The position numbers were made by a program, and so were the translations under genes. 64,000 bases of DNA from an uncultured bacterium (GTDB lineage: Bacteria; Lernaellota; Lernaellaia; JACKCT01): positions 6,333 to 70,332 of the forward strand of contig CAZQAE010000023.1 of NCBI GenBank assembly GCA_964591275.1, given 5' to 3'. Below are positions 4,615-44,534 of this stretch, piece after piece. Each line of letters opens with the position of its first letter. Within the stretch, counting starts at the first letter, position 1. Below the pieces are notes generated by a model. That model was not told the origin of the DNA. It searched no databases and worked only from the letters and a program-made list of their open reading frames with translations.

Positions 4615-7600
4615 GCGGGTGTCGCTCCATGATTCAGTAGATCATCCAGCTTGTAGGCCGTTGCTACTTCGCCAAACCCGGGTTCTTTGAATGGGAAGGC
4701 GCGGATGTAGGTCAGCTCGGATACTGCATCCCCATAGATTATGGCTACTGCCAGAATGAACTGGTCGGGCGCGTTCACAGCACACCGTACTTCGTTAGTA
4801 GTCAGCGTGACCTTATCTGCACCCTTGGCTCTGCCCTTCACCTCAATGAAGCGAAGTGTGCCTTCGGCGTCCTGGGACTCAATGTCGTAGCCAATACCTT
4901 TTGTGGCGCTCACGTCTTTAGGAACGCAGTCCAGAGAGCGCTCAGCCTCCATAACCGCTGCCATCGCCAACGCCTCAACCCGCTTACGTGCCTCAGCATC
5001 TACTCCGTCATCAGGCGAAACCGGTGCATGGCCCTGGTGCTTCAGCAAGAGTCCCGCGGGGATAATGAGCGCGCCACCTTTGACCTGCGGTGGACCCGCC
5101 ATGATCTGCCTCTCCTTTTGCAGCTCATCCAGTCGTGACTGGAGCCGGTCAGCGAGCTTGTCGGCGCGTTCCTGCGCAACGTGGGCAGGTAGTCGAGTGT
5201 TCTTGCCGGCACGTTCCTTGTGTTTGAGCATCTGGGCGCGGTGATCCCAATGGTTGATCTCTTTTGTGAGCCGAGCCTTGACCTGCTGCTCCACGCGATC
5301 GGTCTGCTCCATACGCTGTGCTTTGATCTCATTTACATGCTCAGGGATCACATCGGTGATGGCGTATCCCATGACCTCGTTGTCCCAGTCTTGCCGCAGC
5401 CACTGCGCGTCCAACTCGGCTTCAATCAAGGAGTGTTCGTTTTCGGCCAAAGGACGGTAATCAAGATAGGGCGCTGCGCCTGCTGATCGGTAGTTGCCGT
5501 CGGGTCCAACCTCAACAAACTGAAGGCGCTTGGAGATGGTCAGGAAGTCCCCGTCTCGACCCCGACGACCATCATGGATTTCGTGCTCCAGGTAGAAGAG
5601 TATTCGTGGCGTCTCACTCGCGTCAGCTTCATCCACCAAGACAGCACCACGCTTCATCAGCTCGCCGTGCTTTTCTAGGACGAGGTCGATGGTGGCATCA
5701 AGAAGCGGGCTGCCAGGGCAGACCAGTTCGGCGCGAGGCTGCTGGTCAACCATGTCTTTCTCGAAACATATGCGCTCGTAACGTTCACCAAGCGGGGCGC
5801 CCATTCCTATCTGCCGATCCCGGCGACGCAGAGCTACAGGGACACGGGAGACCTCCCATCGGCCCGACTCACGGCGGTGGACCTTACCACCCAGGCGGGG
5901 GAAGGCATCGAGGAAGAAGGCTTGAATGAAGTGAGGCTGGAGTCTGCGGGCATGGGCGCGTTCCATCTCCTCTCGGATGCTCTGAATGTGCGTGGTGTCC
6001 ATCGAGTCGTTGACCAAAGCCCTTTCATCGAGAATCTCCAGGAGATGGTCATGGTTGATGACGCCGTCTACCGCTTCGTTGAGGCGTGCCTTGACCTCGG
6101 GGTCGTTGCCGTAGCAAATCGCATCCATGAGCATCTCACGAAGGGCTTTCTGATCGAAGAGCCTGCCGAGTACGTCGTAGACCTTGCCGCCGAGGGCTTC
6201 ACGCTCGGCTTCGAGCTTCTCCAGCAGGCGGACGTATACATCGCCCTCACGGGTATCTTTGGCGATCAAGTTCCACAAGTGACAGACCTCGGCCTGGCCG
6301 ATGCGGTGAATGCGACCGAAGCGCTGTTCCAGTCGGTTAGGATTCCAGGGCAAATCGTAGTTCACCATCAGGTGCGACCTCTGGAGGTTCACACCTTCGC
6401 CCGCGGCATCGTTGGCGACCAACACCAGGACTTCGGGGTCGTTCATGAACCCATTGACGATACTGCGTCGCTCTTCTCGGGTTACGGACCCGTGTATCTC
6501 TACGACGGCCTTGTCCCGCCCGAGCCGGTTTCGGATACGTCTGCCAAGATAAAAAAGGGTGTCCTTGAACTCACTGAAGATGACCAGCTTTCGACGGTTC
6601 CCGTCATCATCTGTCATCAATGGATCATCAAGGATTGTACTGAGTTGGTTCCACTTGGCATCTTGGCCTGAGCGCACCACCGTCCGGGCAAGCCCTTCCA
6701 GTCGTTTGAGTGTCTCGATCTCAATCTGAAGTTCTTCGATGGTCGCCGCTGCTGTAGCGTTGTCGATGAGTTGGGTCTCAAGATCCTCCCGCTCCTCCTG
6801 GGGAGCCTCATCGTAGGCATCATCAAAGTTGTCCTCAGTTATACCATCGAGCACAGAGTCAGAAAACTCCAGCTTAGCCTTCTCACCCTTGAGCAGGATG
6901 CGCGCCTCACGCAGGCGGCTCTCCAGCTTCTCGTGACGGCGCTTGAGTGATCTATAGATAGACTCAGGAGACGAAGCCAGACGACGTTGGAGGATCATCA
7001 AGGCAAAGCCCACGTTGACACGCCGTGTCCCTTCTCCTTCAGCGAATCGCTCGGCCCGGTTCATCTCCTCGCGAACGTAGTCCGTTACTTCTGTATACAG
7101 AGCCGCCTCGGGCGCCGACAGGTCATACTGAACAGTGTAGGAACGGCGCTCGGGGAAGAGAGGTTTGCCGTCGAACTTGTAGAGGTCCTCTTTGACCAAG
7201 CGGCGCATTAGATCTGAGGGGTCAGGCGTATGGACACCATCACGGAATTTGCCCTCGAAACGATCGCTATCCAACAGGGCGAGGAAAATCTGAAAGTCCT
7301 CGTTCTTCCCATTGTGCGGGGTTGCTGTCATCAGAAGAAAGTTCCGACAGTGTCTACCAACCAACTGGCCCAGCTTGTATCTCTTGGTGAGTTTGACCTC
7401 GTTGCCGAAGTAATGGCCGCTCATCCGATGGGCTTCATCAACGATGATGAGATCCCACTCGGTGGCGTGTATAAACTTTTCCTGCAGATCTTCGTTGCGG
7501 GAGAGTTGGTCCATCCGAGCGATGAGGTAGTTGTTGTGGTCGAAAGGGTTGGCCGTGCGTGAGCTTTGAATCATTTCTCGGTTAAGCAGATCGAAGTTCA

Positions 7601-8129
7601 GCCCAAACTTTTCATATAGCTCGTCTTGCCATTGATCCGTAAGGGACCCGGGAGAGATAATAAGGCATCGCTTGAGGTCACCCCGAACCATTAGCTCCTT
7701 GATGAGGAGTCCGGCCATGATGGTCTTACCGGCGCCAGGATCATCTGCGAGAAGAAAGCGCATCGGCTGACGAGGCAGCATCTCTTCATAGACTGCTGAT
7801 ATTTGATGCGGCAAGGGCATGATGATGCTGGTGGTGATCGCAACATATGGATCAAACAGCCAAGCAAGATTGATCCGATACGCTTCTGAGACAAGACGAA
7901 GGAGCGCACCGTCCCCATCAAAGGACCAGGGCTTACCGCCGGCGACAACCTCGATGCCCGGTTCATCGTCACGATAGATGAGGCGTTCTCCATACTGGCC
8001 AGAGGAGTCCTTGTAGACAAGCTTCATTGCCTGGTCTCCGATCCACTCTGCCGAGACGACGGTCGCAACACCAGTGGGCGAGATGCCGCTCATCCGCGCT
8101 CCAGCAGTCAATTCCTCTAGCTTCGCCAT
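4611..8129 (-). CDS. SNF2-family DNA helicase (1172 aa) with C-terminal DUF3883-like (NO VEIN-type) domain
   Basis: Helicase motifs present are I (LLADDPGAGKT), II (IIVDEAHRM), V (VANDAAGEGVNLQ) and VI (QRFGRIHRIGQ). The C-terminal approximately 120 aa (GYDIESQDAEGTLRFIEVKGRAKG...) is typical of DUF3883 appended to defence helicases. Confidence 0.85.
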   Translation of the reverse strand: MAKLEELTAGARMSGISPTGVATVVSAEWIGDQAMKLVYKDSSGQYGERLIYRDDEPGIEVVAGGKPWSFDGDGALLRLVSEAYRINLAWLFDPYVAITTSIIMPLPHQISAVYEEMLPRQPMRFLLADDPGAGKTIMAGLLIKELMVRGDLKRCLIISPGSLTDQWQDELYEKFGLNFDLLNREMIQSSRTANPFDHNNYLIARMDQLSRNEDLQEKFIHATEWDLIIVDEAHRMSGHYFGNEVKLTKRYKLGQLVGRHCRNFLLMTATPHNGKNEDFQIFLALLDSDRFEGKFRDGVHTPDPSDLMRRLVKEDLYKFDGKPLFPERRSYTVQYDLSAPEAALYTEVTDYVREEMNRAERFAEGEGTRRVNVGFALMILQRRLASSPESIYRSLKRRHEKLESRLREARILLKGEKAKLEFSDSVLDGITEDNFDDAYDEAPQEEREDLETQLIDNATAAATIEELQIEIETLKRLEGLARTVVRSGQDAKWNQLSTILDDPLMTDDDGNRRKLVIFSEFKDTLFYLGRRIRNRLGRDKAVVEIHGSVTREERRSIVNGFMNDPEVLVLVANDAAGEGVNLQRSHLMVNYDLPWNPNRLEQRFGRIHRIGQAEVCHLWNLIAKDTREGDVYVRLLEKLEAEREALGGKVYDVLGRLFDQKALREMLMDAICYGNDPEVKARLNEAVDGVINHDHLLEILDERALVNDSMDTTHIQSIREEMERAHARRLQPHFIQAFFLDAFPRLGGKVHRRESGRWEVSRVPVALRRRDRQIGMGAPLGERYERICFEKDMVDQQPRAELVCPGSPLLDATIDLVLEKHGELMKRGAVLVDEADASETPRILFYLEHEIHDGRRGRDGDFLTISKRLQFVEVGPDGNYRSAGAAPYLDYRPLAENEHSLIEAELDAQWLRQDWDNEVMGYAITDVIPEHVNEIKAQRMEQTDRVEQQVKARLTKEINHWDHRAQMLKHKERAGKNTRLPAHVAQERADKLADRLQSRLDELQKERQIMAGPPQVKGGALIIPAGLLLKHQGHAPVSPDDGVDAEARKRVEALAMAAVMEAERSLDCVPKDVSATKGIGYDIESQDAEGTLRFIEVKGRAKGADKVTLTTNEVRCAVNAPDQFILAVAIIYGDAVSELTYIRAFPFKEPGFGEVATAYKLDDLLNHGATPA

Positions 8130-8344
8130 TCGTAAAATTCCTTTCCCATCCCTGGGGCGGGAGAAAGTAAATAGTACACATCAACATGGTCTGGGTTCAG
8201 GGGGAATTCGCGAACCGCCACGCCTTTAGTGGTGTGAAGATTCATCACGTCACGATTCTGGACAATCCACCCTGTCATGCCGAGCATCCCATCAATGACA
8301 ATGCGGGCTTTCTCTTCCGGAGTTTTAGCGCCGGGAGCGTTCAT
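8117..8344 (-). CDS. 75-aa ORF resembling the N-terminus of an HsdR-type restriction subunit (HSDR_N motif); probably a gene remnant
   Basis: EEKARIVIDGMLGMTGWIV resembles the HSDR_N consensus (ea.tR..IDp.L...GW.v). It overlaps the helicase start by 13 nt in another frame. It is too short to be a functional nuclease domain. Confidence 0.25.
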   Translation of the reverse strand: MNAPGAKTPEEKARIVIDGMLGMTGWIVQNRDVMNLHTTKGVAVREFPLNPDHVDVYYLLSPAPGMGKEFYEWRS

Positions 8345-8900
8345 AAATTTCCCCGTCAGTTTCGCTCAATCTGATAACCCGGCCAATCGAAGGGATACAA
8401 TGAATCCAGATTTCACATAACCTTCAAACGCGCCTGACATTAAAGCGATTTCAGATCATAGGCCTCCGGCGATTCAACGTCAACGCGCAGCGCCGATACT
8501 CCGCACACAAAAATCCGTACGCACGGTCAATTTCCACACACCGGAAAAAATAATACACCGACCGGCATTTCACCGGCTGAGTGGGTCCCCTTTAAGGCGA
8601 GCCGAAGTCCCGGGGCCTTGCTTTGTCAGCCCAGAGGTTCAGACGGTAGGTCGGAAGTATGCGGGCGGTTTCTCATCCCGCGACCCAACAGGGAGCTGGT
8701 CGAGCACGACGAGGAGGAGGCCGAGAGCGAAGACACCTTGAAGTGGACTGTGCCTATAACCGTGCCCAGAATAATGGCCCATAACGGGAACTAACCGGAA
8801 GTATCCGGAAGTAACGAGAGGTGCGTGGAATGCATAAAAGCGAGATAATGCAAGGGAAGCGCCGTAATCTCGCATAGTTAGATGTTTCCGTTCGTTAGGG

Positions 8901-28917: not shown

Positions 28918-29112
28918 AAATCAGCACCCTCCGTCTTCGGACAGGAATATTTTATCACAGGATTTGTGCAAAAAGGGAAGTGCTATTCCCTCTAAAACGA
29001 GCATTTTGTTCATTGGAGGCTTCTTAGGACCATGGACGGTCCGGCGCATTGATTGACGAACGCAGTTCCCATCGCTAATGTTTGCCCCTGTTTTCTTATG
29101 GGATATTCAGGC

Positions 29113-30072
29113 ATGTTCGATAAAAGGCTACTTTTCATAACCGGCAAAGGCGGCGTCGGCAAAACCACCATCGCGGCATCCATTGCCATCGCTGCCAAGG
29201 AGTTGGGCTTAAAGACTTTGCTGGTGGAGATCGGGATCACGCAGAATCTGGAGCAGATTTTCAGAAAGTGGCTCCCCGTTTATGACATCACACATATCGA
29301 AGACGGGCTCCACGTCATCCGCATCGATCCACTCCGGGCTTTGGAAGAATACATTGCATTATCGCTCAAGATGCAATGGGCGGCCAAGAAGTTCATGGAC
29401 ATGGAAATGATCCGATATCTCCTGCAATTTCTTCCCGCCTGGCGCGACCTGATGATCCTCGGAAAGATATGGAAATTGGAGCAGGAGCTTGAAAAGGGCA
29501 AAGGCGGCCATCCAAAATGGGATTTGATTGTCGTGGATTCTCCAGCAACGGGGCACGGCATCAACTTCTTTCGCATACCGCAGGTCATCCTCGACACCTT
29601 GAGGACAGGGACGCTGCGCAAGCAGACGGAAGCCGTGCATAAGATGATGACCGATCCGGCGCGCACGCAGATCAACGTTGTGAGCCTGGCCGAAGAAATG
29701 CCCATCAATGAATCCATCGAAATCCATCAGGCCACGATTGAAACGCTGAAAATGCCCTTCGGCCGAGTGTTCATTAATATGATGCCCCCGAAAATCCTGG
29801 GCGACAAACAGCTCAAGATCATCGACGAAATGAAAAAGGACAAAAAGGCGCTCAAAGTCCTCAACAGCTTTTTCCCCGGCGGTCATCAGAGATTAATCAC
29901 AGCCGCTCGGCAGCAATCAGCCCGTCGCAAACTCGCCGAAAGCTACGTCGCTGCCGGTCGCGAAAAAATCGATGCCGAATTCATTGAACTGCCCCATGTT
30001 TTCCGCGAAACAATGGACCGTGAAGGCTTGGGACTGCTCGCCCGCGAAATCATCGACCGAGTTAACCAGTGA
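29113..30072 (+). CDS. ArsA/GET3-family P-loop ATPase
   Basis: A deviant Walker A GKGGVGKTT lies at the N-terminus, and there is an ArsA-like switch region (DSPATGHG). Confidence 0.7.
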   Translation: MFDKRLLFITGKGGVGKTTIAASIAIAAKELGLKTLLVEIGITQNLEQIFRKWLPVYDITHIEDGLHVIRIDPLRALEEYIALSLKMQWAAKKFMDMEMIRYLLQFLPAWRDLMILGKIWKLEQELEKGKGGHPKWDLIVVDSPATGHGINFFRIPQVILDTLRTGTLRKQTEAVHKMMTDPARTQINVVSLAEEMPINESIEIHQATIETLKMPFGRVFINMMPPKILGDKQLKIIDEMKKDKKALKVLNSFFPGGHQRLITAARQQSARRKLAESYVAAGREKIDAEFIELPHVFRETMDREGLGLLAREIIDRVNQ

Positions 30073-32134: not shown

Positions 32135-32509
32135 CTATTCAGCGGGTTGCGTGGATGGTTCTTCGCTCGGCTTTTCAGTCTCCGAGTTTTCCGATGCGTC
32201 GTCCGCGCTTTCGTCTTCAGGCATTTCTGGCCACTTGTCCCAATCGACATCGCCCGCTTCATTGTCTTTCGGTGCATCGGGGGGCGTGGCGAAATCTTGC
32301 GGGTCTCCTATGGTCTTTTCGCCGTAAAGATCGAGTATTTCCTTTTCGTCCGCTTCTGGCCTGGGCTTTGGAGCGCCAATTCCCACAACCGGCTTCCGGC
32401 CCTCTTTCACCAGTTCGGGCGCAACAGGCTCTGTTTTTAAACCACAATGCACGCAGAAAAGAAGCAACGTAAATGTCACGGCAACGCAGAATGATTTGAA
32501 TTTTTTCAT
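32135..32509 (-). CDS. Small acidic lipoprotein, 8 nt upstream of the LtaS-like gene start (same operon)
   Basis: It begins MKKFKSFCVAVTFTLLLFCVHCG and has an Asp/Glu-rich tail. The start at 32509 is preferred over the track's 32614. Confidence 0.55.
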   Translation of the reverse strand: MKKFKSFCVAVTFTLLLFCVHCGLKTEPVAPELVKEGRKPVVGIGAPKPRPEADEKEILDLYGEKTIGDPQDFATPPDAPKDNEAGDVDWDKWPEMPEDESADDASENSETEKPSEEPSTQPAE

Positions 32510-32646
32510 CAGACCTTTACTCTTCTCGCTTGCCGAGCCTTTCAGGATATGCAAGCTGCCGGTCAGAAAAACGACTTGGCATATATTGCAGATAAAACTG
32601 GCAATATCCAACAATTACTTTTATACTTGCATCAAGGAGTTTTGCC

Positions 32647-33100
32647 CATGCCCGGCACAGAGACATTTACAGATTTCTTGAAGCGCAGGAAAGAGGAGTT
32701 CAATAAGGAACCCTCGGTCGATTGGGATAAAGAAAAAGAGGATTGGATTGCTTCCGTTGATGCGCTATATAAAAAAATTGAACGGTGGCTCAAGCAGGCG
32801 CAAGACGAGGATTTGCTGAAAATTCAATATGAAGATGAGGAATTGTCAGAAGAGAGATTGGGAAGCTATAAAATTCGCTCGATGCATATCGATTCGGAGT
32901 TCATTCGTGTGAAAATCCGTCCGGTGGCACGCATTGTCATCGGCGGCAAGGGACGCCTTGATATGATCTGCGGATCAAAGAAAATGATGATTGTTCGTAG
33001 TGATGATAAGTGGAAATTCGCGATTAGAACGCCCAAGTTTGAGTCCTGGCCTCTTAACAAAAAATCGTTCACGGAAATTTTACAAGAAATGATGGAATGA
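32647..33100 (+). CDS. Hypothetical protein (151 aa), first gene of a low-GC two-gene insert
   Basis: An RBS AAGGAG lies 8 nt upstream of ATG 32647. The stop overlaps the next start as ATGA. The track ORF starts at 32549. Confidence 0.5.
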
Positions 33101-33681
33101 CGCGCAAGAAGATTCCCTTGAATCCTGACCGACCGCGCGTCAGGGAAATATGGGATTATTACGCGGCATCGACAAAAGCGCTGAAGCTTTATCAGAAAGA
33201 ACTTCTCGATTCTCTGGCAAACGAGAATGTTCAATCCGATTCGAATGAAGCCCGCTTTATGCCAAAAAGTGAAGTTTTCGACCTTTTGGAGAGTTATTAT
33301 ACGGAACTCTCACAAGAAGTGGTGCTCACCCTAAGTTCCATTTTTGAAGCCGAATTGAGACTGGATTATCAACACAGAGTTCGCAATCGCTTTAAGGACG
33401 ATATCAGCAAAAGTTTTCGGGTGTTGCATAAGAAACATGGCGAGAGAATACGCATGGAAACATTGCTGAACGTCTGGAAAAAACGATACTCCGAGTGCGG
33501 ACGTCACATCAGTCTTTTCGAAAGACTTATACTATTCAGACATTGGCTGGCTCATGGAAGATATTGGATTAATAAGTCCGATGAATTTACGCCGGAACTT
33601 TCGCTGACTTGCGCCGATAATCTTTTCACATCGTTGCCCAACTTTGATACGTGGGAATCAATCGATCAGCCGAATACCTAA
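33097..33681 (+). CDS. HEPN-like (Abi-type) protein, 194 aa
   Basis: The C-terminal helix carries an Rx4H motif (ERLILFRHWLAHGRYW). It is translationally coupled to the upstream gene, and the G+C content is lower than in flanking genes. Confidence 0.45.
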   Translation: MTRKKIPLNPDRPRVREIWDYYAASTKALKLYQKELLDSLANENVQSDSNEARFMPKSEVFDLLESYYTELSQEVVLTLSSIFEAELRLDYQHRVRNRFKDDISKSFRVLHKKHGERIRMETLLNVWKKRYSECGRHISLFERLILFRHWLAHGRYWINKSDEFTPELSLTCADNLFTSLPNFDTWESIDQPNT

Positions 33682-33780
33682 TCAATTGAAATCGCTCCCT
33701 CCACCATGACATCGACAAAACCGCGACCTTGAATTGACGCGGCGCGACTCAATGGATATTGTTTGTTTTCTGGAGCGACC

Positions 33781-35376
33781 ATGACGCATGAATGTGACTA
33801 TTTAGTAATCGGTTCGGGCATTGCCGGACTTTCGTACGCGCTCAAAGCCGCGGCCTGTGGCCCTGTCATTATCGTCACGAAATGCGGGCCGGAAGAAACG
33901 AACACAAAATACGCGCAGGGCGGAATTGCCTCCGTCTTTTCCGACCAGGACGATTTCGACCTGCATGTTCGGGATACTTTGGAAGCGGGCGCCGGACTGT
34001 GCCACGAAGATGTTGTACGTATGGTGGTGGAATCAGGCCCCGCCAGGATACGCGAACTGATCGATTGGGGCGTTGAATTCACGCGCAACGAGCAAGAGGG
34101 AAAGGGCTACGATCTGCATTTGGAGGGCGGCCACAGCCGGAAGCGCATCCTGCATGCCGCGGACCTGACCGGAGCCGCCATCGAAAAGGCGCTGCTGGAA
34201 AGAGTGCGCGAACACCCAAATATCAAAATCCTCGATCACCACATGGCCGTTGATCTGATTATGAAGCGAAAAATCGACGGCGACATCGAAAACGACCGAT
34301 GCCTGGGCGCCTACGTACTCAACACAAAATCCGGCAAAATTCCCACCTACGTCGCAAAAACAACGCTCCTGGCGACCGGCGGCATGGGGAAAATTTATCT
34401 GGTCACATCGAACCCCGACATCGCCAGCGGGGACGGAATCGCCATCGCGTTTCGCGCGGGTGCCGCTGTCGCCAACATGGAATTTATGCAGTTCCACCCC
34501 ACGTGCCTCTTTCATCCGCTAGCAAGGAATTTTCTCATCACCGAGGCCCTGCGCGGCGCCGGAGCCGTTCTCGTGGATAAAAACGGCCATGAGTTCATGC
34601 AGCGCTATGATGAGCGCGGCAGCCTTGCGCCCAGAGACATCGTCGCTCGCGCCATCGACAGCGAGATTAAAAAAAGCGGCAGCGAGTGCCTGTACCTCGA
34701 CATCACGCACAAACCGGCCAGCGAAGTGAAAACCGAATTTCCCAACATTTACCAAAGATGCCTTGGTTTTGATATCGACATCACAAAGGCACTGATCCCT
34801 GTTGCGCCCGGCGCCCATTACCAATGCGGCGGGATCCTCGTGGACAAGGACGGAAAAACGACGACCCCGAACCTCTACGCCATCGGGGAGGTCAGTTGCA
34901 CCGGAATGCACGGCGCCAATCGGCTTGCCTCAAATTCACTTCTGGAAGCCGCCGTTTACGCACACAGAGCCGCCGGCAGTTCCACAAGCGAGGATGCAAA
35001 GATCATTAATCCGAATCTGGTCAAAGCCTGGGACCCCGGGCACGCAACGGATTCGGACGAGATGGTCGTGGTCACGCACAACTGGGACGAAATCCGGCGA
35101 CTCATGCAGAACTACGTGAGTATTGTGCGAACGGATCGTCGCCTGGAGCGAGCGAAGACCCGGATTGACAACTTGAAGCGGGAAATCAGACAATATTTTT
35201 GGGATTTCATCATCACGCAGGATCTTCTGGAACTGCGCAACCTCGCCGAATCCGCCGACCTCGTCATCCGTTGCGCCATGGCCAGGCGCGAATCACGCGG
35301 ACTGCATTACAGTCTCGACTGCCCAGGGGTCGGCAAAATCGAACACTCAAAAGACACAATCATAACGAAGCATTGA
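33781..35376 (+). CDS. nadB: L-aspartate oxidase
   Basis: The FAD-binding N-terminus is DYLVIGSGIAGLSYAL. The flavoprotein motifs AQGGIA and RPGDIVA-like ones are present, and the length is 531 aa. Confidence 0.85.
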   Translation: MTHECDYLVIGSGIAGLSYALKAAACGPVIIVTKCGPEETNTKYAQGGIASVFSDQDDFDLHVRDTLEAGAGLCHEDVVRMVVESGPARIRELIDWGVEFTRNEQEGKGYDLHLEGGHSRKRILHAADLTGAAIEKALLERVREHPNIKILDHHMAVDLIMKRKIDGDIENDRCLGAYVLNTKSGKIPTYVAKTTLLATGGMGKIYLVTSNPDIASGDGIAIAFRAGAAVANMEFMQFHPTCLFHPLARNFLITEALRGAGAVLVDKNGHEFMQRYDERGSLAPRDIVARAIDSEIKKSGSECLYLDITHKPASEVKTEFPNIYQRCLGFDIDITKALIPVAPGAHYQCGGILVDKDGKTTTPNLYAIGEVSCTGMHGANRLASNSLLEAAVYAHRAAGSSTSEDAKIINPNLVKAWDPGHATDSDEMVVVTHNWDEIRRLMQNYVSIVRTDRRLERAKTRIDNLKREIRQYFWDFIITQDLLELRNLAESADLVIRCAMARRESRGLHYSLDCPGVGKIEHSKDTIITKH

Positions 35377-35572: not shown

Positions 35573-36991
35573 ATGAGAAGTCCGACCTTAATAATTTCAA
35601 TTTCTGTTTTCATGATTTTTGTCGGCGCATTCGGCGCGGATATTTCCTCGGCATCGCCTTCGGTGAAAGGTGAATTCCAGATCATCGACGGCATTCGCGT
35701 GCTGCATGTGTGGGGCTCACATTACGAAATGGGCTACGCACACGGCTATTTGCTGGCCGATGATATTGTTGAGTTGTTTGACAAAATTTTAGTGCCATTA
35801 ATCGGCAACGCCGAAGGCATGGAAGAAAACCGAGTGCTCTTTCGCGACCGCTACGCCATGCCCGCGTGGCACATGGAAGAAACCCAGGGGATTATCGACG
35901 GTATCGCCGCATCAAGCGCCGGCCTTTTCGTACCGGTTTTGGGCCGGGATCTGGACGCGGATGATTTGGGGACAATGGATTCATTGTCCGACATACGCAC
36001 GGTGTACGAATGCTCATCGTTCGCCGCATGGATTGAATCTACAACATCGGATGCCGTGTTGCTTGGCGAATCGGCGCTTGCGCGCAATCTCGACTGGTTT
36101 GCGCCCTTTGGTCGTCCATACATGCTGGCGAAAAATACTCTTGTCATAGGTCGTGAACCGGATGACGCCCGCGCTACATTGACGGTCAGTTTTTCCGGAT
36201 TAACGGGTTGTTATTCGTGCATGAACGAAGCCGGCGTCGCCACGACGCGAATGATGTCCAATCACGGCACGCCGGGATGGCAGATGGATTTTTCCCGTCC
36301 CTTTACTCCCCTCAACATTGTCATGCGCGACGCTCTGCAGGCGCAAGACGTGGACGGAGACGGCGCCTCAACGGTGGCCGACCTGGCATTAGCGCTTTCG
36401 GAGTCGGTGCGTTCTTCGGCATACAACATCATGATCGTCGGTCCAACCAGCGCCGGACACGAACCGGTTGTCGCCGAAATCAACCACAAAGAGTTCGCTT
36501 TGCGTAGCGGTGCGGATAATACGGAACTGCCATCCAGCGTTCTGGCTTCGGTCAATAATATGCGCAAGTTGTACCCGCCGTATCCCGATGGTCGCTACAA
36601 CGCCATGAAGCGCGATGTCCTGGGCTGGAACGGCGAGATTACTTTGTCGCGGATGTGGGAGGTCCTACAGAGTATGAGCGACCAGTGGATGGCGACGCAG
36701 GCCATGATCTTCGTACCTTTCAACCGTAGTCTGGCCATTTCGTATACGGATGCCGAAGGACTGGCGCCCTTCAAATCACCCGTCTGGCTCGCGTGGGATG
36801 ATGTATTTGACCTTGGAGGCGATGACGACGACGTGGATGACGATGTTGATGATGACGACTCGGACGACGACGATTGGTTGCCCGATGACGATTCAGATGA
36901 CGATGACGCCAATGATGATGACAGCGAAGCAATGGATAATTCCATTGAAACCGACGAGGGGGATTCCGCAGGCAGAGGCTGCGGGTGTTAG
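35573..36991 (+). CDS. Secreted Ntn-hydrolase (peptidase C45 / acyl-CoA:6-APA acyltransferase-like) with C-terminal polyAsp tail ending GCGC
   Basis: It has a signal peptide. A putative autoproteolytic Cys lies in YECSSFAAW. The C-terminus is ...DDDDVDDDVDDDDSDDDDWLPDDDSDDDDANDDD...DSAGRGCGC*. Confidence 0.5.
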   Translation: MRSPTLIISISVFMIFVGAFGADISSASPSVKGEFQIIDGIRVLHVWGSHYEMGYAHGYLLADDIVELFDKILVPLIGNAEGMEENRVLFRDRYAMPAWHMEETQGIIDGIAASSAGLFVPVLGRDLDADDLGTMDSLSDIRTVYECSSFAAWIESTTSDAVLLGESALARNLDWFAPFGRPYMLAKNTLVIGREPDDARATLTVSFSGLTGCYSCMNEAGVATTRMMSNHGTPGWQMDFSRPFTPLNIVMRDALQAQDVDGDGASTVADLALALSESVRSSAYNIMIVGPTSAGHEPVVAEINHKEFALRSGADNTELPSSVLASVNNMRKLYPPYPDGRYNAMKRDVLGWNGEITLSRMWEVLQSMSDQWMATQAMIFVPFNRSLAISYTDAEGLAPFKSPVWLAWDDVFDLGGDDDDVDDDVDDDDSDDDDWLPDDDSDDDDANDDDSEAMDNSIETDEGDSAGRGCGC

Positions 36992-38258: not shown

Positions 38259-39018
38259 TTATTTTTGCGAATAATATTCTTCGCTTCCTTCCTTGAAGGT
38301 GGGCTGGCTTCCGGTCCGCGCCATCATCCGGCGAAGGCCCGGCGTCCGGGTGGTGTCTACAACGTCCAGTTCCTCGTCTCCGGGGTAGCGTGTTTCCCCG
38401 CAGGAAGGACAAACGAACATCGAACGCGAATATGACACAGGGCCGAGGATCGACAACAAGGGCTTGCTTTGAAGTCCCTGGCTTCCCATTCGGCGGCCGC
38501 AGGAGCAGAGCACCGGCTCGGTCCGCCTGCCCGAACCGATTTTTCTCAGCAGGTCCGACAGCATTTTGGCGCCGGCTGTATGGACGGCGGCGCGTATGGC
38601 GCTCTCCCACGCCTCCAGGTCGGCGTTTCCCGCCTTCGACGGCTTTTCGAGAATGCGCTTTACTTCTTTGTCTTGCTCAATGGCGACCTGCGCCGTTTTT
38701 TTTCGACGGGTTCTTTAGAGCTTCACATAAGGCCTCTCCAATTTCCCGCAATTCCTTTGTCAATTTCTCAAAACGCCTGAAGTTGTCGATCTGCTGTTGA
38801 TATTTGGCGACTTCCTTCAGGCTCTTGAGCCTTTTGGAGACGGTCTTTCCTCCTTCCTTGAAAGTGTAGAGGGGGTAAGGCCCGCGCCGCACCATCTCGC
38901 CTTCCTTGTTTTTGCCCTCCCTATACTGCTGGACAATACTTCCCCGTCTCATGCGATCCAGATTCGCTAATTCGGACAGGATGTCTTTGCGCCTTGCCGT
39001 GAGATCTTTTGAAGCCAT
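38259..39018 (-). pseudogene. Transposase remnant: an N-terminal DUF6788-like segment plus a downstream CxxC...CxxC segment, frameshifted and truncated to about 250 codons
   Basis: The N-terminal segment RRGSIVQQYREGKNKEGEMVRRGPYPLYTFKEGGKTVSKRLK matches the pattern RGS...GPY..L....GKT.S that precedes several IS transposases. A second frame (38259-38564) carries a zinc-ribbon. Confidence 0.4.
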
Positions 39019-39203
39019 TTCACCCTTCGCATGTAGTACGCAAAACTACATTACCACAGGCAAAAAAAAGAGTAAGAAAAAAAAACCGGTTTTATGTCGC
39101 AGGCCCTTGACAGTTCTGTATTTTTTTTGCTAGCCCATAAGAAGATGAGAATCATGAGGGGGATTAATTTTTTACGCTCAACAAACAGGGAAAAGGAGGT
39201 CGC

Positions 39204-40067
39204 TTGATGCAAAAATTTTGTTTGATTTCAGTTTTATCAATCTTATTGCTGCTCGTAGCAGCGCAAATCCTTAACGCCAGGGAATCGGCGGAACTCGTCG
39301 TTAATACATGGAGTGACGATTGCTGTGCAAGTTGCGATGCATTACCGGGTTTCAACAACATGGTCGGACATTGGTTCAATGAAGTACGAGATGGCTCACA
39401 TGGATCAAGAGCCTTTGATGATTACTCCAAATGGCGAATCGACGGACATTTCACTCAAGATCTTTTGACTGATGGCACATATGAACAATACGCGGCGGAT
39501 TCGTCCTGGATAGACTATGTCGATGTGGCAATTGTAGCATTGCATGGCACAAGAAGAAATTCTAATCATCATTGGGGTGCAAGGGTTAGAAGTCAAAACA
39601 TCAATGATGAGTGCATTGCTGACCCAGATGAAATGGAAGTTGGGGACTATAACAATGAAAACTTAGTCCTTGTTTCATGTTATTCTGTAAATAAAAACTA
39701 CTTCTCACATTGGAGTGAATGGAAACAAATGTTCGGAGGGATGCAAGCGCTTAATGGTTTTCATGGCAAGGCCTGGTTGGCGGATTGGTTGCACGACGAT
39801 TATGAAAACTTCGCTGATGATGGTTTCGATGTGCCTTTAAAAACGGCCTTTATGGATAACCTCTATGAGTCGAATGCGTTCAACGATGGTGGAACCATTG
39901 TTGATCAATGTCCGGTAACTGTTTCGGCAGGTTCATCTTCGACGGAAGCACGCAGCTACAGAGATAATTACTATTACTATACATGGGGCTCAGACCCATC
40001 AGGGAATTCAAATTGGGCAAGATGGGGCGTTATAGGTTGCGATCCCGGCGGCGAAGGCGCATACTAA
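39204..40067 (+). CDS. Secreted Cys-containing protein (287 aa) with a possible His-Gly ... Ser-Cys dyad arrangement reminiscent of clan-CD peptidases
   Basis: It has a signal peptide. Candidate dyad residues are VAIVALHG and NLVLVSCYS. The region is AT-rich. Confidence 0.3.
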   Translation: MMQKFCLISVLSILLLLVAAQILNARESAELVVNTWSDDCCASCDALPGFNNMVGHWFNEVRDGSHGSRAFDDYSKWRIDGHFTQDLLTDGTYEQYAADSSWIDYVDVAIVALHGTRRNSNHHWGARVRSQNINDECIADPDEMEVGDYNNENLVLVSCYSVNKNYFSHWSEWKQMFGGMQALNGFHGKAWLADWLHDDYENFADDGFDVPLKTAFMDNLYESNAFNDGGTIVDQCPVTVSAGSSSTEARSYRDNYYYYTWGSDPSGNSNWARWGVIGCDPGGEGAY

Positions 40068-40080
40068 TAAATGAAAGGAC

Positions 40081-41010
40081 ATGGTCATGAAAAGGCAACA
40101 TTTAATCAGTTTTGTTCTCATTGCGCTCATCCTTCTTGTGCAAACCATCCAAGTCAGGGCCGACGAGGAGGACAATACATCGGAAAAATACTTCGGAGGT
40201 AAAAGAGTACTGGATTACAATGCAATTCTCGATGAAATATCTCAAAAGGAACAGAAAATCGATGAAACGATTACCCAGAGTATGAGAAAATGCGAATCCT
40301 CTGTCGCCTCGTTTTCCAATGAGGATATTTCCGAATGGTATGAAGCGGGGAAAGCATTTACACGATCCACTTTCCGTAATGGAAAAAAACTTCGAGATGA
40401 AAACGAAGATTTAATCATTAAAAGAAAGCTAGGATATTTGAGAATAATTGAGAAAAGAGGCATCGAGGAATCGAGAAACATCGCTTCGAGGTCCAATAAA
40501 ACTTTAGACATCAGCAAAGAGGATGCGTTGGAAAGCGCTCTTGTATTTTCAGACTACATCGGAATTGAAAGAGATCAGATATGGGATGTCGATATTAAGG
40601 TTGTCGCCGGAGAAAGCGGAGGAGAAAACGGCGTTGTTGAGGAAAAAGTGGAAGCGGAGTATCTTGTGACAATATATCGCTCGATAAACAACACACCCGT
40701 TGCCGACAGCCGCGTACGTTTGGCGATCAGCGATAGTGGGATTGTAACAAGAGTGCTTGCTCAATGGCCGATTCTTGAGGCTCAACCGGTTACTAAGCAG
40801 AAAGTGGATATTTCCCGGGTGGCGCTGAAAGTTTACGATCAATTGGACGCCATATACTATAAGAATCCGAAGGTAAGCTATGGCCTTTACCCCGTCATTG
40901 TCCATCAGGAAGACGGCGATGTCATTCGCGCCATGCCCGCTTTGCGCGTCATGGTGGTTCGTTCCGAGCAGGGACCTGTTATAGGATTCGATATTAACTT
41001 GGTGGAATAA
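40081..41010 (+). CDS. Secreted hypothetical protein (309 aa)
   Basis: It has a signal peptide ISFVLIALILLVQTIQVRA and lies in the same AT-rich block, 13 nt after the previous gene. Confidence 0.45.
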   Translation: MVMKRQHLISFVLIALILLVQTIQVRADEEDNTSEKYFGGKRVLDYNAILDEISQKEQKIDETITQSMRKCESSVASFSNEDISEWYEAGKAFTRSTFRNGKKLRDENEDLIIKRKLGYLRIIEKRGIEESRNIASRSNKTLDISKEDALESALVFSDYIGIERDQIWDVDIKVVAGESGGENGVVEEKVEAEYLVTIYRSINNTPVADSRVRLAISDSGIVTRVLAQWPILEAQPVTKQKVDISRVALKVYDQLDAIYYKNPKVSYGLYPVIVHQEDGDVIRAMPALRVMVVRSEQGPVIGFDINLVE

Positions 41011-41037
41011 ATCCCCTAACGGGAAGGAGAAAAGGAA

Positions 41038-41478
41038 ATGAGGAATTTTAAGATATTCAACAGGCTGCCCTTCGCGTTGCTGCTTGTCATTCTCGTGGCA
41101 TTACCCATTGCGCTGATGGCCTTATCCTGCGGCGATGATGATGACGATGATGATTCGGATGACTCTCAAACCCAGACATGTCAACATAGCTATGAAGATG
41201 CATGCGAGTTCATTACCGATATCCAAGCTCCGAATGATTCGGATTTGAATTGTGTTGATGCTTTTGAATTCGGATTTGAAACGGTGAAGGAATGCCATGA
41301 AAACATTATCGAACCTCTCCTTGATTCCGAGAATCCCTGTGAAGTATTGGCCGGTGAATGCTTAAATACGATGAGTGAGATTGACGAAGAATGTAGTGAA
41401 GTGACGCCGACCAGTTGCGAAAACGCCTGGGAAATATGGAGCGAATGTCTGGTGATCGCCGAGCAAGAGGATTGCTGA
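41038..41478 (+). CDS. Small Cys-rich acidic lipoprotein with polyAsp linker
   Basis: The lipobox is LMALSC followed by GDDDDDDDSDDS, and the mature part has 12 cysteines. Confidence 0.5.
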   Translation: MRNFKIFNRLPFALLLVILVALPIALMALSCGDDDDDDDSDDSQTQTCQHSYEDACEFITDIQAPNDSDLNCVDAFEFGFETVKECHENIIEPLLDSENPCEVLAGECLNTMSEIDEECSEVTPTSCENAWEIWSECLVIAEQEDC

Positions 41479-41796: not shown

Positions 41797-42267
41797 TTAG
41801 CGAAGAATAACCCTTGCGTCGGCTATGACAGCCCTTAGCGGCGAAGCGATAACCGGATTGAGATCAATGGATTCGATAACTTCACGCATTTGATAGGCCG
41901 CTTCGGAAAAATCAGCAATCAATTGCGCCACGGATTCGACATTGATGGCTGCGGCGCCGCGGAGCCCTTCCAGAAGCGGACGTCCTTTGAGCATGCGAAG
42001 CGCCGAAAGGGCTTCCCCTTCCGATACAGGCGCCATGCGAATGACCACATCCTTATAAACTTCCACCGAAGTGCCTCCGATGCCGACAACAACCACGACA
42101 TCGAATTGGGGATCGGTTTTTGCGCCGACGATAAGTTCCAATCCCGGCGGCAGCATTTCGTCCAGCAATACGCCCGCGAAGCCTTTAAGACCGGAGAACT
42201 TTTTGAATATCTCCCGCAGGTGCTTGAGTGTTATGTGGATTTGAGAAACTATGCAGGGGTGGTCCAA
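41797..42267 (-). pseudogene. C-terminal approximately 150 codons of an NDP-forming acyl-CoA synthetase (ATP-grasp, AcdB-like); the 5' part of the gene is absent
   Basis: The segment ELIVGAKTDPQFDVVVVVGIGGTSVEVYKDVVIRMAPV...ESIDLNPV matches the C-terminal half of the ATP-grasp domain of ADP-forming acetyl-CoA synthetases. No N-terminal nucleotide-binding part lies upstream. Confidence 0.45.
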
Positions 42268-42563
42268 TGGTCGGGGGTCTCATCAGTTCAACAATACTGA
42301 TCTTAATCATACTTCCGGCAGTTTATTTGCTTTATAAAAAGGGAGATGAACCGACGCTTTTTCAGTCAAACGAAAAAAGAAAGCAGCAAGCCTTCAAAAA
42401 GGCTTTTGAAAACGAATAAACACGATAGAAATGCGGGGGAATAAAAATGACGGACTTAAAAAATGAACTTGATGCGGAAAAAGAATGGCGAAAATATGCT
42501 GATTATGGGTACCGATCCGAGCAAATAGGAAAAGCCAACAGATCGAAAAAGAGGTCAAATACC

Positions 42564-42863
42564 ATGAAAGACTTGTTCATACTTCTCATCGCGACTGTTT
42601 TTGTGCTCGCCATCGCCTCGGTCAGTTTCGCCTGCGACGAAAATTCCGATGTCTCGGCAAAGGCGGATACGACGACGGCGGCGCCGAAAGTGTTCGACAA
42701 GGCACAGACCGTCGGGACGCAAGTCACCTGCCCTGTCATGGGCACTGTCTTTGCCATTGAAAAAGACACGATTCACAAAGAGTACAAAGGCAAGCACGTG
42801 TATTTGTGCTGCCAGGGATGCATTGAAAAGTTCAAGGCCGATCCGGGAAAGTATACAAAATAA
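42564..42863 (+). CDS. YHS-domain lipoprotein (putative Cu/metal binding)
   Basis: The lipobox is SVSFAC. The YHS/TRASH-like motif is TCPVMGTVFAI...HVYLCCQGCIEKFKADPGKY. The start at 42564 is preferred over the track ORF 42447. Confidence 0.65.
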   Translation: MKDLFILLIATVFVLAIASVSFACDENSDVSAKADTTTAAPKVFDKAQTVGTQVTCPVMGTVFAIEKDTIHKEYKGKHVYLCCQGCIEKFKADPGKYTK

Positions 42864-43169
42864 GCTCATCTCTCTTTCCTAAAATGACACCAAGAGCTTC
42901 TTGCCAAACACGGCAAGAGGCTCTTTGTCTGAAAGGGTAAAGAAAGAAGGCGGAAAGAGGTTCTCTTTCGTTTCAGAAAGAAAATTATTTCTCCCAATTA
43001 CCGCATTTTCGTTGACTACAGAGACATTGGAGAATTTCTCAACTTTTCCTTTTATCTTGACTTTCCAGAAGCAATTGACTATGGACGGAGGTCGCGAACC
43101 GTAAGTGTTCGCAGCTTTATTTTGCGCACTGCGCAGGGAAATATTCGGGGCTTGGTCTTTGAATCGGTA

Positions 43170-44534
43170 ATGAGAAAAGGAGAATGCAAAGTGAAAAATG
43201 CGTCGATTATCATTCTATTTGTCGTCATCTTTGCGGCATCAGCCCAGATGACTCCATCCTACGCCCTGGACATCGCCGAACTCCAAAAATCGATTGACGA
43301 AAAAGGCGCCGAGTGGACAGCCGGCGAAACAAAGTTTTCGCACCTAAGCGCCGAAGGGTTCGCGCAAATGCTTAACTATCCGCTGGAAACCCCCGTTTTG
43401 CCGGAAGGAAAGATTCTCCACGAGTGGAACGGCGAAGTTAAAGATGATCCCCCCGATCAGCTCGACTGGAGGGATTATAACGGCAAGAACTTCCTGACCT
43501 CGATCAAGGACCAGCATCCCTGCGGTTCGTGCGCCACCTTCAGCACCGTCGGCTGCCTGGAATCCCACATCAAGATCGTCATGGACAATGAATTCATCGA
43601 GCCGAATCTGGCTGAGCAGCTTGTATGGTCTTGCTCAGGCGGGATAATGCCGCCAGCCACTTTTTTTCATACTCTGGGATGGCTGCAAAGCGAGGGAACC
43701 GCGGATGAGGCTTGTTTTCCCTACGATGCCGAGGAGCAATGCGCCGACAGTTCCCTGGGCCGCGTCGATTGCGCGGAGCGTTGCGAGGATTGGGAAAACC
43801 GGACATACGGCATTGATGAATATCAATTTTTTATGTTCCAGCAGCCGGAAACCTTTATCCAACCTCTGCAAAGCGGCCCCATCGTCGCGGGCTTCATGGT
43901 CTTCGAGGATTTCCAGGACTACACCGAAGGCGTTTACGATCACACCACGGGAGCGATGCTGGGAGGCCACGCCGTGCTTATCGTAGGATACGACGCGCAG
44001 GAAGAGTACTGGATCTGCAAGAACAGTTGGGGAGCCGACTGGGGTGAAAACGGCTACTTCCGCGTTCGCTGGGGCGACGGCCTGCTCGACTTCGGCTACC
44101 AGGCCGCACACATGGACGTCAGCTTTGAAAGTGTTTGCGGCGGCAATGAAGCGCCCGCCATCAGCGATCTGGTCGTTTCCGGCAAAGCCGAAGGCGAATC
44201 CGAGATTCTCTTCAATTATGAGGATTTGGACGCCAATCTGGCCGGCGCCGAACTCTTTTATTCCATTGATGGCGGCGACTTTGTCCGTTTCGACTCCCCG
44301 ACCACGCAGCTCGTTGGCCTAAGCGGCGAAGCGTCATTTATCATTGCGGATGAATTTTCCTCCATCCAGGTTTACGTCAAGGACATCTGCGGCGTTGAAA
44401 GTAATCAACTCAATGTCGGCGAGCAAGTCGATGATGATGACGATGACACAGCCGATGACGACGCGGCTGACGATGACGAAGCCGACGGCGACGACGATGA
44501 CGACGATGATGACGACAGCGGATGCGGCTGTTAA
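43170..44534 (+). CDS. Secreted papain-family (C1A) cysteine peptidase with C-terminal beta-rich domain and polyAsp tail ending GCGC
   Basis: The active-site Cys box is DQHPCGSCATFS. The His region is GGHAVLIVGYD, and the Asn/Trp region is NSWGADWGENGY. The C-terminus is ...DDDDDTADDDAADDDEADGDDDDDDDDDSGCGC*. Confidence 0.8.
   Translation: MRKGECKVKNASIIILFVVIFAASAQMTPSYALDIAELQKSIDEKGAEWTAGETKFSHLSAEGFAQMLNYPLETPVLPEGKILHEWNGEVKDDPPDQLDWRDYNGKNFLTSIKDQHPCGSCATFSTVGCLESHIKIVMDNEFIEPNLAEQLVWSCSGGIMPPATFFHTLGWLQSEGTADEACFPYDAEEQCADSSLGRVDCAERCEDWENRTYGIDEYQFFMFQQPETFIQPLQSGPIVAGFMVFEDFQDYTEGVYDHTTGAMLGGHAVLIVGYDAQEEYWICKNSWGADWGENGYFRVRWGDGLLDFGYQAAHMDVSFESVCGGNEAPAISDLVVSGKAEGESEILFNYEDLDANLAGAELFYSIDGGDFVRFDSPTTQLVGLSGEASFIIADEFSSIQVYVKDICGVESNQLNVGEQVDDDDDDTADDDAADDDEADGDDDDDDDDDSGCGC

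Follow-up and report, generated by a model that had tools for sequence, protein, structure and literature searches.

A widespread two-gene module with a divergent HEPN-like protein and a conserved upstream partner, a candidate toxin-antitoxin or abortive-infection pair, in the genome of an uncultured bacterium

The window, i.e. the whole stretch of 64,000 nucleotides analysed here, carries two overlapping genes (gene 1 and gene 2) which form a widespread pair without a name in Pfam, NCBIfam, PADLOC and PHROGs and which most likely constitute a toxin-antitoxin (TA) or anti-phage module with a novel partner protein. Gene 2 is described here as a divergent member of the HEPN superfamily and a probable RNA-cutting toxin, as judged from its sequence and a structural model. 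We regard it as moderately probable that the pair is a self-contained, horizontally mobile TA or abortive-infection module consisting of a HEPN RNase and an acidic antidote. The observation of a low-GC gene pair (a putative insert) encoding a HEPN-like protein, made in a preliminary description of this DNA, is confirmed, and its interpretation as an abortive-infection or toxin module is partly supported. HEPN RNases are the killing or growth-arresting effectors of Cas13, Csm6, RnlA, HepT and several Abi systems, and the interest of such systems lies in how each RNase is restrained. If the proposed reading is true, the catalogues of TA and defence systems would gain a new HEPN toxin/regulator pair, and hundreds of genomes could be annotated better.

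Both genes are located between a sulfatase/LtaS-like gene (PF00884) and nadB (PF00890), the site given in the preliminary description. The features of the locus are as follows.

32598..32627, forward strand: promoter-like site upstream of gene 1 (CTGGCA, 18-nt spacer, TATACT), from a consensus scan with 9/12 matches
32634..32639, forward strand: Shine-Dalgarno sequence AAGGAG, 8 nt upstream of the ATG of gene 1, read from the sequence
32648..33100, forward strand: gene 1, coding for the 150-aa partner protein, based on the open reading frame, its start, in-register homologues and an AlphaFold model
33097..33100, forward strand: ATGA start/stop overlap of gene 1 and gene 2, read from the sequence
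33097..33681, forward strand: gene 2, coding for a 194-aa all-alpha HEPN-like protein, a predicted metal-independent endoRNase (putative toxin/effector), from sequence and model
33346..33360, forward strand: E84-A-E-L-R88, acidic motif of the Ex3[KR] type, located on the long second helix of gene 2, from family alignment and model
33538..33555, forward strand: R148-H-W-L-A-H153, the predicted Rx4H catalytic motif of gene 2, from family alignment and model

The stop codon of gene 1 is the TGA at 33098-33100, and gene 2 extends from the ATG at 33097 to position 33681, so that two co-directional reading frames with an ATGA overlap are present as previously described; the overlap is consistent with translational coupling. 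Gene 1 itself was correctly recognized, but it starts at 32648, one base past the earlier claimed 32647. The starts of its homologues line up with residue 1 of the 150-aa protein; a longer open reading frame of 183 aa starting at 32549 had neither homology support nor a ribosome binding site and was rejected. The promoter-like site is considered weak, because the count of such sites in the region is not above the expectation from shuffled sequence.

The two-gene module has a GC content of 43.5%, compared to a window mean of 52.2% (SD 3.6%, windows of the same size), and only 1.6% of the same-size windows have a GC content this low. The GC3 values are 0.50 for gene 1 and 0.48 for gene 2 versus 0.54-0.67 for five neighbouring genes, in agreement with the earlier remark that the pair is AT-richer than its neighbours. 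As two further stretches of the window are equally AT-rich, the module is a GC outlier but not a unique one.

A word-indexed search delivered a single distant relative for gene 2 and no relative for gene 1; the gene 2 family emerged with an exhaustive HMMER profile search and has at least 957 clusters (50% identity), each with a protein length of about 180 aa. Conservation was counted in 92 diverse relatives sharing between 23% and 38% identity with the window protein. The segment ERLILFRHWLAHGRYW represents residues 142-157 of gene 2 and includes R148-x4-H153, encoded at nt 33538-33555. A single Rx4H motif is frequent by chance; the motif of gene 2 is considered meaningful because of its conservation across the 92 diverse relatives. 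R148 occurs in 92/92 and H153 in 91/92 of them, accompanied by W150 (92/92), G154 (92/92) and R155 (90/92), and R148 is followed at position 149 by H in 73, by N in 14 and by D in 3 of the 92. The Rx4H motif reported earlier in a C-terminal helix is thereby part of a family signature, R-[H/N/D]-W-L-A-H-G-R. The isoelectric point of gene 2 is 7.9, with a family median of 8.3. Direct scans with Pfam, NCBIfam, PADLOC and PHROG families gave no match to either window protein, which agrees with the earlier statement that no known TA or Abi family is recognisable, and an NCBIfam scan of the 92 relatives gave scattered noise only.

HEPN domains are defined by an Rx4-6H motif with a polar residue (N, D or H) after the arginine and by an acidic residue in helix 2, typically within Ex3[KR] (PMC3710099). 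All three sequence features are found in gene 2: the Rx4-6H motif, the polar residue after R and an Ex3[KR] motif in an earlier helix, of which E84 is conserved in 91/92, A85 in 85/92 and R88 in 64/92 relatives, with Q replacing R88 in 16. The AlphaFold model of gene 2 (pLDDT 93, pTM 0.88) consists of helices at residues 15-41, 57-97, an inserted pair at 102-114 and 120-130, and helices at 132-152 and 166-179. The Rx4H motif is located at the C-terminal end of helix 132-152, and E84 and R88 lie inside helix 57-97. This fits the HEPN helix layout, in which the motif ends the helix before the last core helix and a helical insert occurs, as compared by the order of secondary-structure elements. 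With R148, H153, the second acidic motif and their positions in the model fitting the HEPN definition, the earlier designation of gene 2 as HEPN-like with a conserved Arg and His is upheld.

In addition, members of the gene 2 family match four independent HEPN models, weakly. The PADLOC model RTasHEPN matches 2/92 members with a best E-value of 1.7e-5 (about 1.6e-3 when corrected for 92 proteins), two PADLOC CARF_HEPN models match members at about 5e-3, and the Pfam models HEPN_RiboL-PSP and HEPN_MAE_28990 give repeated matches in the family, usually on stretches ending in Rx4H, with scores of 12-16 bits that are far under the gathering scores of 27-28. The gene 2 protein of the window itself has zero matches to these models. 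Two members of the family bear the automatic UniProt name 'RiboL-PSP-HEPN domain-containing protein'; the current Pfam copy of PF18735 matches neither of them, and the best family scores for this model, 12-14.6 bits, do not reach its gathering threshold of 28.4 bits.

The absence of any Pfam match above threshold would also suit a reading in which gene 2 is an unrelated helical protein of different activity, with an R-x4-H that resembles HEPN by chance. Further results on the same side are those of the structure and sequence comparisons: Foldseek searches with the gene 2 model against PDB and BFVD gave no significant match to HEPN or any other fold (best PDB E-value 1.4), the HEPN structures 1jog and 3jrt were found in the noise range (E-values 3.5-5), and the sequences in PDB, searched with three profiles (A1, A3 and A6, the last centred on the motif), contained no relevant match. 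Foldseek is weak on helical bundles, which lessens the weight of its result. Four features (motif, polar residue, Ex3R, and position of the motif helix together with the insert) agree with the HEPN definition, and matches to four independent HEPN models would be very unlikely among so few marginal matches, so that a chance resemblance is considered highly improbable. Of the two findings named earlier as speaking against a HEPN protein, a missing fold match and a lack of conservation of the Arg and His, the first was obtained with Foldseek, but both residues are conserved family-wide.

Among the described HEPN groups, the RiboL-PSP-HEPN (PF18735)/AbiD-AbiF-related assemblage (Anantharaman et al. 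2013) has the motif R-[N/H/D]-x3-H-G in common with gene 2; its weak matches recur centred on this motif, and it is the group named for two members in UniProt. Scores of the gene 2 family are, however, 12-15 bits versus the cut-off of 28.4. RiboL-PSP-HEPN domains are described as fused to an endoRNase L-PSP domain or in operons with ParB (PMC3710099), whereas the gene 2 family consists of standalone proteins of about 180 aa paired with the gene 1 protein. The MAE_28990/MAE_18760-like HEPN family (PF18737) gives weak matches over the motif-bearing C-terminal half of gene 2 family members, with scores of 12-16 bits versus a cut-off of 26.8. In the literature, MAE_18760 members are described that carry at the N-terminus a fused novel domain of about 121 aa, mostly of beta structure, and two-gene dyads are described with an upstream putative antitoxin. 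The upstream partner in these dyads is a ParA/Soj ATPase, in contrast to the alpha+beta protein of 150-190 aa found here, as compared by description. The stretch R-H-W-L-A-H-G-R-Y-W of gene 2 also appears to resemble RNxxAHHxRLW, the signature of Abi_2 (AbiD/AbiF).

Gene 2 has a fixed partner in gene 1, for which the preliminary description had suggested a role as sensor, antitoxin or immunity partner. In 90/96 loci and in 11/12 viral loci the next gene upstream, in the same orientation, is a gene 1 homologue; considering loci with an intact upstream region it is present in 101/102, all exceptions but one being contig ends. The overlaps in homologous pairs are mostly 4 or 8 nt, and no third gene beside the pair is conserved across loci. 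The pairwise identities of the two proteins correlate with r=0.86 (permutation maximum 0.09), which in part reflects shared ancestry. The family medians of the isoelectric point are 5.6 for gene 1 (acidic) and 8.3 for gene 2 (basic). The pair accordingly has several traits of type II-like TA systems, namely small co-directional overlapping genes, an upstream partner, an acidic/basic pairing and a patchy mobile spread, whereas a DNA-binding domain, a further trait of such systems, is not detectable in the putative antitoxin.

In the proposed TA or abortive-infection mechanism gene 1 would be translated first and coupled to gene 2 via the ATGA overlap, and the acidic gene 1 protein would bind the basic HEPN protein and keep the RNase inactive. 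Loss or titration of gene 1, by plasmid loss, by phage shut-off of host expression or by a phage trigger, would set gene 2 free. The gene 2 protein is then expected to act as a dimer and to cut RNA without metal, with R148 and H153 as predicted active site, aided by H149 and by E84 of the second helix, and the freed RNase would cause growth arrest. We infer the toxicity of gene 2, its neutralisation by gene 1, the RNase activity and the trigger.

The gene 1 homologues (P0004-P0012) were found by profile search, for which a two-sequence profile was needed. Near-invariant residues are W33, E68, G72, Y74, P92, G99, G102, R103, D105 and W122. The isoelectric point of gene 1 is 6.7. Its AlphaFold model is a confident alpha+beta fold (pLDDT 85), in which three helices at the N-terminus are followed by a beta region of seven strands and a helix at the C-terminus. 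The earlier statement that gene 1 has no recognisable fold holds insofar as a Foldseek search of the model against PDB gave no significant match, but not with regard to the confident model itself. PH domains are numerous in the Foldseek noise for gene 1, which is a hint only. Members of the gene 1 family, scanned against Pfam, had zero matches, including none to DNA-binding domains of HTH, RHH, AbrB or Phd type; the model shows helices and a beta domain.

These properties bear on the role of gene 1. The conserved E68, Y74, R103 and D105 are unusual for a simple antitoxin, and the near-invariant set E68, Y74, P92, G99, G102-R103-x-D105 and W122 is more suggestive of a binding or active site than of a plug. 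Together with the confident globular alpha+beta fold and the missing DNA-binding domain, this suits a possible, if less probable, alternative in which gene 1 is a sensor, activator or obligate regulatory subunit of the same HEPN RNase within a defence system instead of an antidote, e.g. with a beta domain that binds a ligand or a phage protein and switches the RNase on during infection. At locus L037 just a C-terminal remnant of gene 1 is left beside an apparently intact gene 2, a state that sits uneasily with the role of an essential antidote for gene 1 and that a sensor would accommodate. The presence of the pair on viral contigs and the loci adjoining DarG, type III-B Cmr genes, ShosA or PsyrA point the same way. 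The upstream position, the overlaps of 4-8 nt and the acidic/basic pairing, however, represent the classical antitoxin-toxin layout, the occurrence as cargo of tiny ColE1-type plasmids fits addiction at least equally well, ligand binding by gene 1 is conjecture, and the neighbouring defence genes are few in raw counts. In its most specific form, a hitherto unrecognised and widespread anti-phage system in which a PH-like alpha+beta gene 1 protein senses a phage product or small molecule through E68, Y74 and the G-x-x-G-R-x-D loop and controls a new HEPN branch, this alternative is likewise tentative. If gene 1 is such a sensor, it would represent a new partner class and a regulatory mechanism for HEPN effectors other than a simple protein plug.

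Two well-described HEPN systems resemble the favoured TA or abortive-infection module in organisation. HepT/MntA (HEPN-MNT, type VII) is likewise a widespread, mobile dyad with an upstream partner and a small downstream HEPN protein with Rx4H, but gene 1 has neither the fold nor the motif of a nucleotidyltransferase; HepT (DUF86) has a length of about 130 aa, and its Pfam model and the solved HepT sequences do not match gene 2. In RnlA-RnlB/LsoA-LsoB the HEPN RNase toxin is restrained by a small protein antitoxin of its own, with an anti-phage function and a location on plasmids or chromosomes. Unlike in the present pair the toxin gene comes first, and RnlA is a three-domain protein of about 357 aa; no sequence similarity to the pair was found, and RnlB and gene 1 are not related. 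From the DefensePredictor work, four HEPN systems are reported as validated in E. coli. A literature search on the pair and on the Klebsiella accessions that carry it found no paper.

In genomes sampled at one per species, 391 loci were detected; they represent at least 12 phylum-level groups, and some MAGs have the pair twice. The 120 immediate neighbours at about 70 loci are mostly housekeeping genes such as tRNA synthetase, epimerases, methyltransferases and glycosyltransferases, and few match defence genes (DarG, 2; Cmr3/Cmr4; ShosA; PsyrA), all as raw counts. These raw counts do not demonstrate the defence-island enrichment that the preliminary description had proposed to look for, chromosomal homologues lying mostly among housekeeping genes in this sample. 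Such neighbours would fit an accessory, non-toxic complex for RNA processing or regulation, or a HEPN-like RNA- or nucleotide-binding protein with its chaperone, outside any conflict system. Some HEPN proteins, e.g. Las1 and MtlR, are in fact non-toxic RNA processors or binders (PMC3710099), and the tolerated loss of gene 1 at L037 is compatible with such a role. It is nevertheless judged unlikely, since the pair is rare (about 0.2% of species genomes), has a scattered occurrence among many phylum-level groups, with changing contexts and at times two copies per genome, is present on small plasmids and viral contigs, has a low GC content in the window and fully retains the catalytic motif, which non-catalytic HEPN domains usually lose (PMC3710099).

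The closest NadB relatives found in metagenomes, examined in a search for nadB neighbourhoods without the pair, were only about 60% identical and shared none of the flanking genes, and a search for att-like repeats flanking the pair gave short repeats at chance level only. Neither the window protein nor the family consensus had a tblastn match among plasmids and phages, and blastn of the Klebsiella module against complete E. coli genomes gave zero matches; P0166, a gammaproteobacteria-like member, was the only query that recovered the Klebsiella plasmids. The Klebsiella gene 2 protein is represented by WP_040173808, and its gene 1 partner by WP_064279389/WP_044525166. The patchy spread, the viral contigs, the small Klebsiella plasmids and the several copies in some genomes support the conclusion that the pair behaves like mobile cargo and is exchanged among bacteria, prophage-like contigs and small Klebsiella plasmids. 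If the favoured TA or abortive-infection reading is true, it would account for what the small cryptic ColE1-type plasmids of clinical Klebsiella mainly carry, and these plasmids would serve as a directly tractable model. The gene 2 family was found on 12 IMG/VR contigs and in 18 plasmid records from Klebsiella/Raoultella; in the ColE1-type Klebsiella plasmids of 3.7-4.7 kb the pair is the main cargo, alongside rop and an HTH gene.

Gene 1 and gene 2 are co-directional. Their neighbours are nadB (33781-35376) on one side and, on the other, a sulfatase/LtaS-like gene that is transcribed divergently together with a small 124-aa gene (minus strand, ending at 32509). Gene calls agree with the placement in the preliminary description, which had recognized the same overlapping ORF pair with its start off by one base.

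32648-33100, plus strand, gene 1, partner protein of 150 aa, AAGGAG 8 nt before the ATG
33097-33681, plus strand, gene 2, HEPN-like protein of 194 aa, 4-nt ATGA overlap with gene 1

A longer, 183-aa reading of gene 1 from 32549 was rejected because homologue alignments begin at residue 1 of the 150-aa form. The pair is AT-richer than its surroundings, as had been noticed: its GC content is 43.5% vs 52.2% for the window (SD 3.6% for same-size windows, 1.6% of which are at or below this value), and its GC3 is 0.50 and 0.48 vs 0.54-0.67 in neighbours. Two other stretches, 38651-41385 and 42176-43310, are as AT-rich; in the former, genes for DUF6788 and DUF6345 proteins and for two proteins lacking annotation (307 and 146 aa) follow one another, and it may be another acquired cassette. 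No convincing flanking repeats were found around the pair. An imperfect 17-nt inverted repeat (32594-32610 / 33753-33769, 82% complementary) brackets it almost exactly at the low-GC boundaries, probably by chance. No tRNA is close, the only one in the window lying at 49815, and the nearest available nadB relatives (~60% identity) share no flanking genes with this locus. Downstream of nadB, a 472-aa protein (35573-36991) with no Pfam match has a C-terminal tail extremely rich in Asp (DDDDVDDDVDDDDSDDDDWLPDDDSDDDDANDDDSE...).

Scans of both proteins of the pair against Pfam, NCBIfam, PADLOC and PHROGs gave no match, in line with the earlier statement that no known toxin-antitoxin (TA) or abortive-infection family is recognizable. 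A word-indexed search with gene 2 returned one relative (32% identity); a profile of these two proteins, searched exhaustively, matched 957 cluster representatives at E<=1e-3, of which 597 reach E<=1e-10. Of the 150 matches listed, almost all are ~170-195 aa long. Conservation was counted in an alignment of 92 members, 23-38% identical to the query.

Conservation of gene 2 residues in the 92-member alignment (window protein numbering)
R148, W150, G154: invariant (92/92)
H153: 91/92
R155: 90/92
A152: 88/92
Position 149: H in 73, N in 14, D in 3 of 92
E84: 91/92
A85: 85/92
R88: 64/92, Q in 16
E70: 90/92
D90: 86/92
R94: 84/92
W127: 85/92

Chance readily yields a single Rx4H, but not conservation of this degree. 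The motif noticed in the window protein is, judging by the alignment, the signature of a large unnamed family.

HEPN domains are defined by an Rx4-6H motif with a polar N, D or H directly after the R, and by another acidic residue in helix-2, usually within Ex3[KR] (PMC3710099). The AlphaFold model of gene 2, built on the 92-sequence alignment, is all-alpha (pLDDT 93, pTM 0.88), with helices at 15-41, 57-97, 102-114, 120-130, 132-152 and 166-179. E84-x3-R88 lies inside the second long helix and is followed by a two-helix insert; R148..H153 closes the next helix, after which one further core helix follows. Motif, polar residue, Ex3[KR] placement and helix order therefore all agree with the HEPN definition, as the proposed HEPN-like nature of gene 2 would have it. 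Among the 92 members, HEPN_MAE_28990 and HEPN_RiboL-PSP are among the few marginal Pfam matches; such HEPN matches were seen again in other members and in the consensus sequence of the family, and the matched stretch mostly ends in Rx4H. PADLOC RTasHEPN matches two members (E 1.7e-5, ~1.6e-3 corrected for 92 proteins), and two CARF_HEPN models match at ~5e-3. The members A0A327YHX9 and A0ABS1EHU4 carry the automatic UniProt name 'RiboL-PSP-HEPN domain-containing protein', a match absent with the current Pfam copy. The sequence models point weakly but consistently to HEPN; by Pfam's own thresholds gene 2 belongs to no named family. Foldseek of the model gave nothing significant against PDB (best E 1.4; the HEPN entries 1jog and 3jrt at E 3.5-5) or BFVD, and a PDB sequence search with profiles gave no match. 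Gene 2 very probably belongs to the HEPN superfamily, and we regard a non-HEPN protein as highly improbable.

A profile of gene 1 and its homologue at locus L001 found nine further relatives of 151-176 aa. Linkage was scanned at 96 loci, comprising the encoding contigs and 80 of 391 genome loci. At 90 of them gene 2 is directly preceded by a co-directional gene 1 homologue, mostly with an overlap of 4 or 8 nt; of the six loci without one, five lie at a contig end. The same order was found at 11 of 12 IMG/VR loci, the twelfth being a contig end. The one real exception, L037 from a Gammaproteobacteria MAG (2035-2953), retains a C-terminal remnant of gene 1 (ORF 2251-2430) before an apparently intact gene 2 (2399-2953) with the full motif, directly downstream of a DarG-like macro-domain gene (987-2018); an artefact of assembly, gene decay or replacement of the partner may explain this. 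No third conserved gene accompanies the pair, the largest neighbour cluster covering 4 of ~80 loci, mostly from related genomes. Pairwise identities of gene 1 and gene 2 correlate over 79 pairs (r=0.86, permutation maximum 0.09; r=0.76 below 60% identity). By these identities the two genes are inherited and diverging together, the correlation being partly due to shared ancestry.

Gene 1 thus accompanies gene 2 obligately and forms a conserved family of its own, in two length classes of ~150 and ~180 aa, the latter with an insertion of ~30 aa in the beta region. Across 42-79 diverse members W33, E68, G72, Y74, P92, G99, G102, R103, D105 and W122 are (near-)invariant. The preliminary description saw no recognizable fold; Foldseek indeed gave nothing significant, but the model (pLDDT 85) nevertheless shows seven beta strands between three N-terminal helices and one C-terminal helix. 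PH domains are numerous in the Foldseek noise and fit the order of seven strands plus C-terminal helix; this predicted resemblance is only a lead. No Pfam match or recognizable DNA-binding domain was found in gene 1.

The family is patchy, with 391 loci in 185,579 species genomes, from Planctomycetota, Myxococcota, Desulfobacterota, large sulfur Gammaproteobacteria, Bacillota, Acidobacteriota, Alphaproteobacteria, Betaproteobacteria, Bacteroidota, Latescibacterota, Gemmatimonadota, Patescibacteria and Binatia. Two copies are present in some MAGs; in three of these they lie on different contigs (L059+L064, L056+L069, L070+L075), the hosts being an Alphaproteobacterium, a Desulfomonile and a Planctomycetaceae bacterium. 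Eighteen Klebsiella/Raoultella plasmid records carry the family. In ColE1-type (ColRNAI) plasmids of 3.7-4.7 kb the pair, adjoining rop and an HTH gene, is the main cargo (188 and 183 aa, 8-nt overlap, motif FRHWLAHGRYW); the same segment also lies within IncFIB plasmids of 135-177 kb, close to IS26 and to ccdAB and relE modules. The small plasmids come from clinical Klebsiella and Raoultella, with all proteins annotated as hypothetical.

1746-2856, plasmid pair in NZ_CP092518.1 (L189)
7442-8552, plasmid pair in NZ_CP072469.1 (L190)

On chromosomes, the genes next to the pair are mostly housekeeping ones; a few match DarG (2), Cmr3/Cmr4, ShosA or PsyrA, a tally without a background rate, which does not by itself show a defence-island setting.

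For a pair of this observed anatomy, conservation, linkage and mobility, the suggested TA or abortive-infection module is plausible, and we lean slightly towards it because the partner comes first and the effector second, the overlap fits translational coupling, an acidic protein (median pI 5.6, gene 1) accompanies a basic one (8.3, gene 2), no other gene is conserved, the spread is patchy and mobile with small-plasmid cargo, and the HEPN catalytic signature is intact. By analogy with characterized HEPN enzymes, gene 2 would dimerize and cleave RNA without metal through R148, H153, the polar H149 and E84, and would be toxic; gene 1 would bind gene 2 and hold it silent until gene 1 runs short or is displaced by a trigger. 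The main rival keeps the HEPN effector and gives gene 1 the role of sensor or activator, to which the strongly conserved polar, glycine-rich loop of gene 1, its lack of a DNA-binding domain and the L037 locus point; we consider it rather unlikely, and a non-conflict role of the pair in RNA metabolism or a non-HEPN gene 2 less likely still.

The nearest described HEPN families, all matched below threshold, are RiboL-PSP-HEPN, with reported distant kinship to AbiD and AbiF (PMC3710099), and MAE_28990/MAE_18760. Their described contexts (L-PSP fusion, ParB or methylase operons, ParA/Soj dyad) are unlike the pair. HepT/MntA and RnlAB are functional analogues whose partners are unrelated to gene 1. 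No paper or defence catalogue entry on the pair was found. We regard it as a new branch of HEPN proteins whose strictly linked partner domain is likewise new, not as something categorically new: a widespread, solid unannotated module of familiar type, tractable by experiment.

Dyads of MAE_18760-HEPN with ParA/Soj ATPases are described in the HEPN literature. In the window an ArsA/ParA-like SIMIBI ATPase gene (29053-30072) lies ~2.6 kb upstream of the pair; since two opposite-strand genes keep them apart and the ATPase gene was not found as a conserved neighbour at other loci, this proximity is probably a coincidence.
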